In this document: positions 3,935-5,301 of the stretch, in pieces
How the letters are laid out: every line of letters begins with the position of its first letter
Numbering within the stretch: position 1 is the stretch's first letter
NCBI RefSeq assembly: GCF_016026235.1
Contig: NZ_CP065613.1
DNA from: Escherichia coli
GTDB lineage: Bacteria; Pseudomonadota; Gammaproteobacteria; Enterobacterales; Enterobacteriaceae
DNA: 64,000 bases
Strand: one strand, 5' to 3'
The notes under the pieces: model-generated
Database searches by the model: none
Told to the model about the DNA's origin: nothing
Seen by the model: only the letters and a program-made list of their open reading frames with translations
Position numbers and translations under genes: made by a program

Positions 3935-4987
3935 TCATATTCTCGCCAAAACACTTTTTAATGCCTTTGCGAATTCATCCAGACTTATATTGTCAATTTT
4001 TTGCCCAACGACGACTGACTCCGAAACATCGGCCATTGCGGGCCATCGCGTTTTGTAATCAGCATAAATTGCAACAACGGGGGTATTATAGGCACTTTCC
4101 ATATGTAATATTGAGGTGTCAGGAGTTATTGCGATATAAGCATCGTTTATGATTGCTGCTGAACGTTTAATCGAGGGTGATAAGGATAAACGGTAGACAT
4201 TATTATAACAATCCACTAATACCCTGGCTTTATCTTCCCCTTTTGGTCCATGAACGATCACTATTGGTATATCTGTTTCACTTTGAATTTTTTCTATTAG
4301 ATTTTCTGCAATCGATAGTGAAAATGTACGATCCTGCGAGCTACCTTCTAAATTAAGCGCAATGTAAGATCCTAACGATCGCATTTCCTCGCGCACCTCA
4401 TCGAGTACATCCTCACTTAGTGGCAATTCATATATTGGCCTGACTGCTGGAAAACCCGCCTCACGCATCATAAATGCCCATGTCATGGGTACGGGAGCCC
4501 GGAGTTTCTGATCCATCCGGGACGCGTTCTTACACACAGGGGAATAGCACTTCATGGTTAAACCAACAACCTGAAAATTCGTTTTTGCTTTCAACTGACT
4601 GATAAATAACATCGTTTTCAGGTTCTTTTTACGCATCGCCTCTATACAAAGATCCGGCGTACCGTATTGCTGTGTTATGTTCTTCGCTAAATCTTTTATT
4701 TCTTTTAATGTTGCGTGATCCTGCATAGTCATTGTGACTAATGTTAATTTAGTCTGTTCAAGTTTGAGCGCATTAAAGACTTCTAAATTAATTGTCGACG
4801 TAACAATTAATAGATGCTTAATTTTATGCAATTCAAGCGCACGAATAACAGGAAAGATGGCCATAGCATCGCCAATCTGATCGGGAATATGGATGACAAC
4901 AAAGTCTGTTTTTTCAATATTGAAATTATAAGCTTTATAATCGTAGTAACTAAATGCAATACGTCTCAACAATGATACTAAAAACAT
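3935..4987 (-). CDS. yeeL: Glycosyltransferase family 9 (heptosyltransferase-like) protein
   Basis: Continuous ORF 3935-5050 (371 codons). The N-terminal region (KTDFVVIHIPDQIGDAMAIFPVIRAL) resembles the RfaC/RfaF-type fold start. Start codon uncertain (M1 at 5050 or M22 at 4987). Confidence 0.6.
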   Translation of the reverse strand: MFLVSLLRRIAFSYYDYKAYNFNIEKTDFVVIHIPDQIGDAMAIFPVIRALELHKIKHLLIVTSTINLEVFNALKLEQTKLTLVTMTMQDHATLKEIKDLAKNITQQYGTPDLCIEAMRKKNLKTMLFISQLKAKTNFQVVGLTMKCYSPVCKNASRMDQKLRAPVPMTWAFMMREAGFPAVRPIYELPLSEDVLDEVREEMRSLGSYIALNLEGSSQDRTFSLSIAENLIEKIQSETDIPIVIVHGPKGEDKARVLVDCYNNVYRLSLSPSIKRSAAIINDAYIAITPDTSILHMESAYNTPVVAIYADYKTRWPAMADVSESVVVGQKIDNISLDEFAKALKSVLARI

Positions 4988-5301
4988 AACTAACCTCGCC
5001 TCCCTACTGGTTATAATGCAATGCAGTCTATCAGAATCATCAGGGTGCAATTTTGTGCATATGCGGACTTTTATGTTTCATATCTCGAACCTGTGGGGCC
5101 TCTGCTTAATCCTTAAACAACACCAGCAACTCCTGCGCTTTCATCTTCCAGCGAATTTTTCATGTTGCCGTTAATCAGCCATAAAATCATTTGCAGATGC
5201 GCTCTGTCGAGGTAGTCTCATAAGGTTCGTTTATAGATCGACGGCAATGTGAGTTACCTTTTCCATACTAATTATAAAAAGACAGTACAAACAGGATCAT
5301 T

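Follow-up and report, generated by a model that had tools for sequence, protein, structure and literature searches.

The yeeL gene is annotated as a pseudogene in Escherichia coli K-12, and its reading frame is open in the E. coli strain analysed here; the locus therefore raises the question of whether an open yeeL is special to this strain, and of what its product would do. We addressed this on a 64,000-nucleotide stretch of contig NZ_CP065613.1 (RefSeq assembly GCF_016026235.1), referred to below as the window, in which yeeL lies on the minus strand between yeeJ and shiA. The initial annotation of the stretch had described yeeL as one continuous frame encoding a family-9 glycosyltransferase (GT9), had taken the K-12 gene to be a split pseudogene with a frameshift, and had proposed that this strain may keep a functional heptosyltransferase-like enzyme. 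Our reading, to which we give a probability of about 0.6, is that the window carries the intact ancestral allele of yeeL, and that its product is a stand-alone GT9 enzyme which would transfer a sugar from a nucleotide donor to an envelope glycan.

The continuity of the frame was confirmed. A single uninterrupted open reading frame (ORF) occupies 3935..5050 of the minus strand, with 371 codons in the ORF listing when counted from a TTG. An ATG at 4987-4985 yields a protein of 350 amino acids (aa), and RefSeq uses the same start.

3935..4987, minus strand: yeeL coding sequence, predicted GT-B fold family-9 glycosyltransferase, 350 codons plus a TAA stop at 3937-3935
4988..5050, minus strand: in-frame upstream extension to the TTG, probably an untranslated leader with the ribosome-binding site

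The coding sequence is 1053 nt long and collinear with K-12 b4497 and with the gene for WP_000480501.1 of O157. A GAGG at 4997-4994 lies 6 nt 5' of the ATG, and a GGGAGG is present at 5004-4999. Because the homologues of other genera begin, in all cases, at the methionine equivalent to this ATG and the RefSeq proteins at the locus are 350 aa long, the segment 4988-5050 is most likely non-coding, and the ATG at 4987 is almost certainly the start that is used biologically. The yeeL region is AT-rich (36-43% G+C, as compared to 47-53% in the flanks); at this composition random stops would make up about 6% of codons, and we estimated the chance of 350 open codons at p ~1e-10. This estimate, the existence of full-length homologues, in which more than 100 residues are invariant, and a ratio of non-synonymous to synonymous substitution rates (dN/dS) of about 0.2 together confirmed that the ORF is real and far from chance.

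In K-12 MG1655 (NC_000913.3) the gene yeeL (b4497) is annotated as a pseudogene at 2052276-2053328, also 1053 nt, and the order yeeJ, yeeL, shiA, amn is identical there and in the window. Base-by-base comparison of the two genes gave 1021 identical positions of 1053 (97%), with 32 substitutions and no insertion or deletion. The only in-frame stop in the K-12 gene is at codon 235, where a C to T change, at window base 4285, has turned CAA into TAA.

4283..4285, minus strand: codon 235, CAA (Gln) here and TAA in K-12, from base-by-base comparison with NC_000913.3

The pseudogene status given for the K-12 gene was thus correct, but the frameshift was not: the two genes are collinear, with 1053 nt each and a single TAA, which ruled a frameshift out and left the nonsense codon 235 as the cause. 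The alignment with K-12 that the initial annotation had proposed as a check found a gene of equal length that is not intact. Records of K-12-type yeeL carry the PGAP remark 'internal stop'. In addition to the TAA, the K-12 positional orthologue has seven other amino-acid changes that are specific to it among the sampled alleles, whereas the window allele has CAA and two changes of its own, K281N and A297E. Since codon 235 is a sense codon (Q, K, T or R) throughout the outgroup genera, the TAA is the derived state and the intact form is ancestral.

We determined how widespread the intact form is by searching 5426 complete E. coli genomes with window 3700-5300 (1601 nt, the locus with its flanks). 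The region was present in 5343 of the 5426 genomes, and in 4931 of them at least 80% of the query aligned in one place. Codon 235 was typed by exact counts of three 47-mer haplotypes, together with 17 sampled annotations; about 1200 genomes fell outside typing by these three 47-mers.

Window-type 47-mer: codon 235 CAA, 1632 genomes
Second common 47-mer haplotype (EC61 type): codon 235 CAA, 1823 genomes
K-12-type 47-mer: codon 235 TAA, 768 genomes

CAA was therefore found at codon 235 in at least 3455 of the 5426 genomes, and the K-12 TAA in about 14%. Many carriers of the TAA are laboratory derivatives, but clinical, pig and chicken isolates carry it as well, and AR_0128, annotated 'internal stop', is one of these non-laboratory carriers. 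Among 13 sampled alleles, a set limited to alleles other than the K-12 type and free of large insertions or deletions, 12 had an intact 350-aa annotation (O157 PV15-279, strain 105, TF5, GE3, 23-AB02114, RUT3575, LSC52, EC61, 2D, O128:H27, TO124 and NMBU_W05E18), and that of strain D4 was frameshifted. Other lesions were a stop plus a frameshift in WS3294A, truncations, and insertions of IS1, IS5 and IS3 family elements (IS, insertion sequence), and Shigella sonnei has partial yeeL genes. The 90%-identity protein cluster of YeeL has 10,923 member sequences, and we estimate that yeeL is open in about 70% or more of E. coli genomes. Intact yeeL is thus the ancestral majority state of E. coli; in this strain it is ordinary, already present in RefSeq as 'glycosyltransferase family 9 protein', and the suggestion that it sets the strain apart did not hold.

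The allele of the window is nevertheless not identical to the common ones. From 3700 to 17688 the window is 99.9% identical (99.89%) to O157:H7 PV15-279, with 14 differences in 13,990 nt (0.1% divergence), of which 6 are transitions and 8 transversions; within 3700-8100 (4.4 kb) five of the six differences are transversions. The intact 350-aa O157:H7 protein WP_000480501.1 differs from the window allele by 3 nt and two residues, having K281 and A297 like all other sampled alleles, where the window lineage has N281 and E297.

4145..4147, minus strand: codon 281, AAC (Asn), K281N, at a family-variable position (K/R/N)
4097..4099, minus strand: codon 297, GAA (Glu), A297E, in the donor-site motif D290-T-S-x-x-H295-x-A297

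Of the seven E. coli alleles compared, that of the window is the only one with either change. They are natural lineage variation; a sequencing artefact or mutator damage was ruled out, since the exact window protein was found in at least 24 public assemblies (read on 24 contigs) and two public assemblies are 100% identical to window 1-8987. Residue 297 lies two positions past His295, and each of the 29 other family and GT9 proteins in the alignment has A, T or G there. Glutamate is unusual at this site, and A297E may impair the enzyme in the window lineage. As the change lies in a conserved motif, an intact frame is no proof of an active enzyme. The GT9 homology that underlay the proposal of a functional heptosyltransferase-like enzyme was upheld, but activity is not established by it. 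Missense changes at family-invariant residues were also found in strain 2D (T221I and R275H) and in LSC52 (T79I). Between the closely related alleles of 2D (L005) and EC61 (L004) there are one synonymous and nine non-synonymous changes (dN/dS 2.5). The variation in the 2D lineage suggests relaxed constraint, or a silent loss of function despite the open frame.

The identity of the gene as yeeL, a GT9 homologue, was borne out by its position, orthologous to b4497, and by a match to PF01075 (Glyco_transf_9). This match is marginal, with 23.7 bits against a cut-off of 22 and coverage of the C-terminal half only, and relatives recovered by a YeeL profile score 35-52 bits with the same model. Close homologues, with 52-72% identity, occur in Escherichia albertii, Pseudocitrobacter, Erwinia and Rosenbergiella, and more than 100 residues are invariant across the family from Escherichia to Rosenbergiella. 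When 1.8 billion representatives were searched with a profile, a distinct small clade of about 20 full-length clusters came first (E 1e-82 to 1e-27), followed by general GT9 proteins at ~1e-18. A sequence-profile search of the PDB with YeeL gave no more than a marginal match to WaaC (E 0.09). The AlphaFold2 model of YeeL (pLDDT 84.5, pTM 0.83) has the GT-B fold of two Rossmann domains and is nearest to solved GT9 structures, with which Foldseek concurs. Comparison of the model with known structures gave the following scores.

3TOV (GT9): 27.4
WaaC: 23.6
WaaF: 23.5
TibC: 16.1
Other GT-B families: 15 or less

Membership of YeeL in GT9 is thus supported, and YeeL is a distinct conserved clade of stand-alone GT9 proteins. 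It has only 12-16% identity to WaaC (HepI), WaaF (HepII) and 3TOV, and differs from WaaC and WaaF in that its N-terminus is extended by 27 residues, among them the invariant D16 and Y17, and in having both an insert at 141-162 and the invariant C114. The cysteines C114, C147 and C152 (window about 4646, 4547 and 4532) are invariant from Escherichia to Rosenbergiella; C147 and C152 lie in the insert, which is missing from WaaC and WaaF, and in the acceptor domain the three may bind a metal or form a disulfide. YeeL was rejected as an orthologue of WaaC, WaaF or WaaQ, since its NCBIfam scores are far under the cut-offs (TIGR02195, 16.2 against 134.6; TIGR02201, 14.6 against 170.2; RfaQ model NF007742, 13.4 against 467) and the gene stands alone outside the waa cluster; in K-12, waaF, waaC, waaL and waaU are elsewhere than the yeeJ-shiA site of yeeL. 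With the models for heptosyltransferases I, II and III and RfaQ all far from their thresholds, the name 'heptosyltransferase' is for YeeL no more than a family label.

Residues that could form the active site were located by hmmsearch, hhalign and a MAFFT alignment of YeeL with WaaC, WaaF and 27 relatives.

4868..4870, minus strand: codon 40, Asp of the invariant I-G-D motif, aligned with Asp13 of WaaC and WaaF
4328..4330, minus strand: codon 220, invariant Arg, aligned with WaaC Lys192 (hhalign, MAFFT), a conservative change
4103..4120, minus strand: codons 290-295, D-T-S-I-L-H, aligned with WaaC D261-T-G-L-S-H266 (hmmsearch, hhalign, MAFFT)

According to published work on WaaC, Asp13 is the proposed catalytic base, Lys192 contacts phosphate, and D261-T-G-L-S-H266 is the sugar-nucleotide binding loop and helix start. 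All 22 family members compared, which come from four genera, have D40, R220, D290 and H295. The ribose-binding E222 of WaaC aligns with G250 of YeeL, which is followed by the acidic E251 and D252, though the register here is uncertain. By analogy, YeeL would be a 350-aa cytoplasmic, inverting GT-B enzyme of GT9 acting at the cytoplasmic face of the membrane. As in WaaC and WaaF, the heptosyltransferases of lipopolysaccharide (LPS) to which its fold is most similar, the nucleotide sugar would be bound in the C-terminal Rossmann domain. The donor site would comprise Arg220 and the D290-T-S-x-x-H295 loop, together with an acidic residue at 251/252; the donor is most likely ADP-L-glycero-D-manno-heptose, because this is the usual donor of GT9. 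With Asp40 as the general base, the sugar would pass to a hydroxyl of an envelope glycan held in the N-terminal domain, and the acceptor is probably the LPS core or an oligosaccharide linked to undecaprenyl diphosphate. The role would be accessory and dispensable, and the enzyme of the window lineage is possibly weakened by A297E.

Distant relatives give a hint of such an envelope-glycan acceptor. P0107 (E 1e-82), the closest of the full-length outgroup proteins, is encoded in a cluster together with a further GT9, two GT2 proteins, one GT4 protein, a pair of Wzy_C proteins, WecG and an initiating transferase of the Bac_transf type, and the relative P0135 is a Wzy_C/YeeL-like fusion. A bolder version of the reading takes YeeL for an active orphan enzyme of GT9 that most wild E. 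coli have and K-12 lacks. It would add a sugar to the core of LPS, to some other lipid-linked glycan or to a protein of the cell surface, and its acceptor domain would use the unusual trio C114, C147 and C152, for example in a metal- or redox-dependent manner; we regard this as possible but doubtful.

Several observations weigh against a working envelope glycosyltransferase. We infer the donor and the acceptor from family and fold only. The HepI model TIGR02193 gave 35.2 against a cut-off of 185.3, no clearly aligned conserved equivalent of WaaC Glu222 was found in YeeL, and the acceptor-side loop 141-162 has pLDDT below 50 in the AlphaFold2 model. In Escherichia, Pseudocitrobacter, Erwinia and Rosenbergiella yeeL lies in no glycan cluster and has no conserved neighbour. 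A promoter scan based on two sigma-70 hexamers gave no minus-strand site 5' of the yeeL ATG; by eye, a TATAAC is visible about 21-26 nt 5' of the ATG, with a weak -35 only. A297E, T221I, R275H and T79I may mean that open frames encode impaired proteins. In titles and abstracts of the searchable literature we found no experiment on YeeL, and at that level yeeL appears only as a K-12 pseudogene used as an integration or marker site, or is named incidentally.

Some of these points would also fit a different account, in which the open frame is an evolutionary relic drifting to loss, already disabled here by A297E and of no phenotypic meaning. The negative promoter scan and the missense changes at family-invariant residues agree with it, as do the independent inactivations (the TAA in 768 genomes, D4, WS3294A, the IS1, IS5 and IS3 insertions, the truncations and the partial genes of Shigella sonnei) and a dN/dS within E. 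coli four times that of the neighbouring shiA (~0.2 as compared to ~0.05). However, a dN/dS of ~0.2 is well under 1, the frame is kept in roughly 70% or more of genomes, and more than 100 residues have stayed invariant from Escherichia to Rosenbergiella at 52-72% identity, which requires long-term selection on the protein. We consider a mere relic unlikely, though it is the foremost of the alternatives. yeeL is under weak purifying selection, and its repeated losses have come about through nonsense mutation, frameshift, insertion of IS elements and truncation; this pattern is that of an accessory gene that is conserved yet dispensable.

The genes on either side of yeeL bear on two further accounts of its function.

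2..3673, plus strand: 3' part of yeeJ (inverse autotransporter adhesin), convergent with yeeL and open from the window edge
5302..6618, plus strand: shiA (shikimate transporter), divergent neighbour of yeeL
4988..5301, no strand assigned: divergent intergenic region between yeeL and shiA, covered by the promoter scan and by eye

A terminator-like hairpin lies at 3693-3720. In assemblies with the window yeeL allele YeeJ is full length, at 2545-2643 aa. In O157:H7 PV15-279 yeeJ is interrupted by an IS3-family element, and several other lineages keep only a degraded Ig-like remnant.

The adjacency of yeeL and yeeJ in E. coli, the full-length YeeJ of the window-allele lineage, and the cysteines C114, C147 and C152, which loosely recall the metal site of TibC, could suggest that YeeL transfers heptose to proteins, as do TibC and AAH, members of the bacterial autotransporter heptosyltransferases (BAHT), and that it glycosylates YeeJ or further autotransporters while they are still in the cytoplasm. 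The two genes are, however, convergent and are not transcribed together; yeeJ adjoins yeeL in Escherichia only among the four genera, with no inverse autotransporter near the orthologues of Pseudocitrobacter, Erwinia and Rosenbergiella; and intact yeeL stands beside a degraded yeeJ remnant in EC61, 2D, O128:H27, RUT3575 and O157 PV15-279. The published YeeJ paper neither reports glycosylation nor mentions yeeL. The structural similarity of YeeL to TibC/AAH is clearly lower than that to LPS-type GT9 enzymes, and no sequence match to them was found. With the linkage not conserved and TibC structurally more distant, coupling to YeeJ or BAHT membership was rejected as the main explanation, and we regard it as improbable. 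On the other side of yeeL, a transporter gene of the major facilitator superfamily (MFS) directly adjoins it in all four genera, so that YeeL might glycosylate a small molecule handled by that transporter, the two serving together in detoxification or export. Among themselves, these transporters are unrelated (ShiA, YdeE-like, NepI-like), and BLASTP found no similarity between ShiA and the Erwinia MFS protein or between the Rosenbergiella and Erwinia MFS proteins. Their orientation also differs, being divergent in two genera and co-directional in two, and MFS genes are so abundant that the adjacency is best taken as chance. Coupling to an MFS transporter was rejected, these transporters being of unrelated families, and seems to us very improbable.

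Elsewhere in the window, a trio of tRNA genes matches the K-12 layout of asnW, asnU and asnV around yeeO, cbl and nac, and the yeeO ORF is open here and annotated as frameshifted in O157:H7 PV15-279. The stretch 17700-46900 is not collinear with that genome and appears to be another island in the same chromosomal position; it holds genes for a PfkB/DeoR kinase, a GATase1-like protein and a phosphotriesterase-family protein, and further rve-type transposases. An AIDA/Ag43-type autotransporter gene at 41194-46702 is apparently split by an insertion sequence, and the domain pair encoded at 44013-45554 is typical of an IS21-type element.

9683-9758, minus strand: tRNA-Asn (GTT)
9859-11499, minus strand: yeeO ORF
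11507-11582, plus strand: tRNA-Asn (GTT)
13915-13990, plus strand: tRNA-Asn (GTT)
19662-20798, minus strand: IS110-family transposase, at the start of the non-collinear stretch
41194-43194, plus strand: N-terminal 666 aa of the autotransporter (ESPR, AIDA and AC_1 domains)
43252-44001 and 44013-45554, minus strand: ORFs between the autotransporter halves, the latter with rve and Mu-transposase C-terminal domains
45722-46702, plus strand: autotransporter beta-barrel domain

Little of the intact state of yeeL is new, as public annotation already has both the pseudogene of K-12 and, for thousands of E. coli genomes, the intact protein. The comparison resolves the defect of K-12 yeeL into one nonsense codon, a natural minority allele found also in clinical and animal isolates, and makes K-12 the wrong background in which to study YeeL. 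If YeeL is an active glycosyltransferase as proposed, descriptions of the E. coli envelope that are based on K-12 would be descriptions of an envelope without the YeeL modification.
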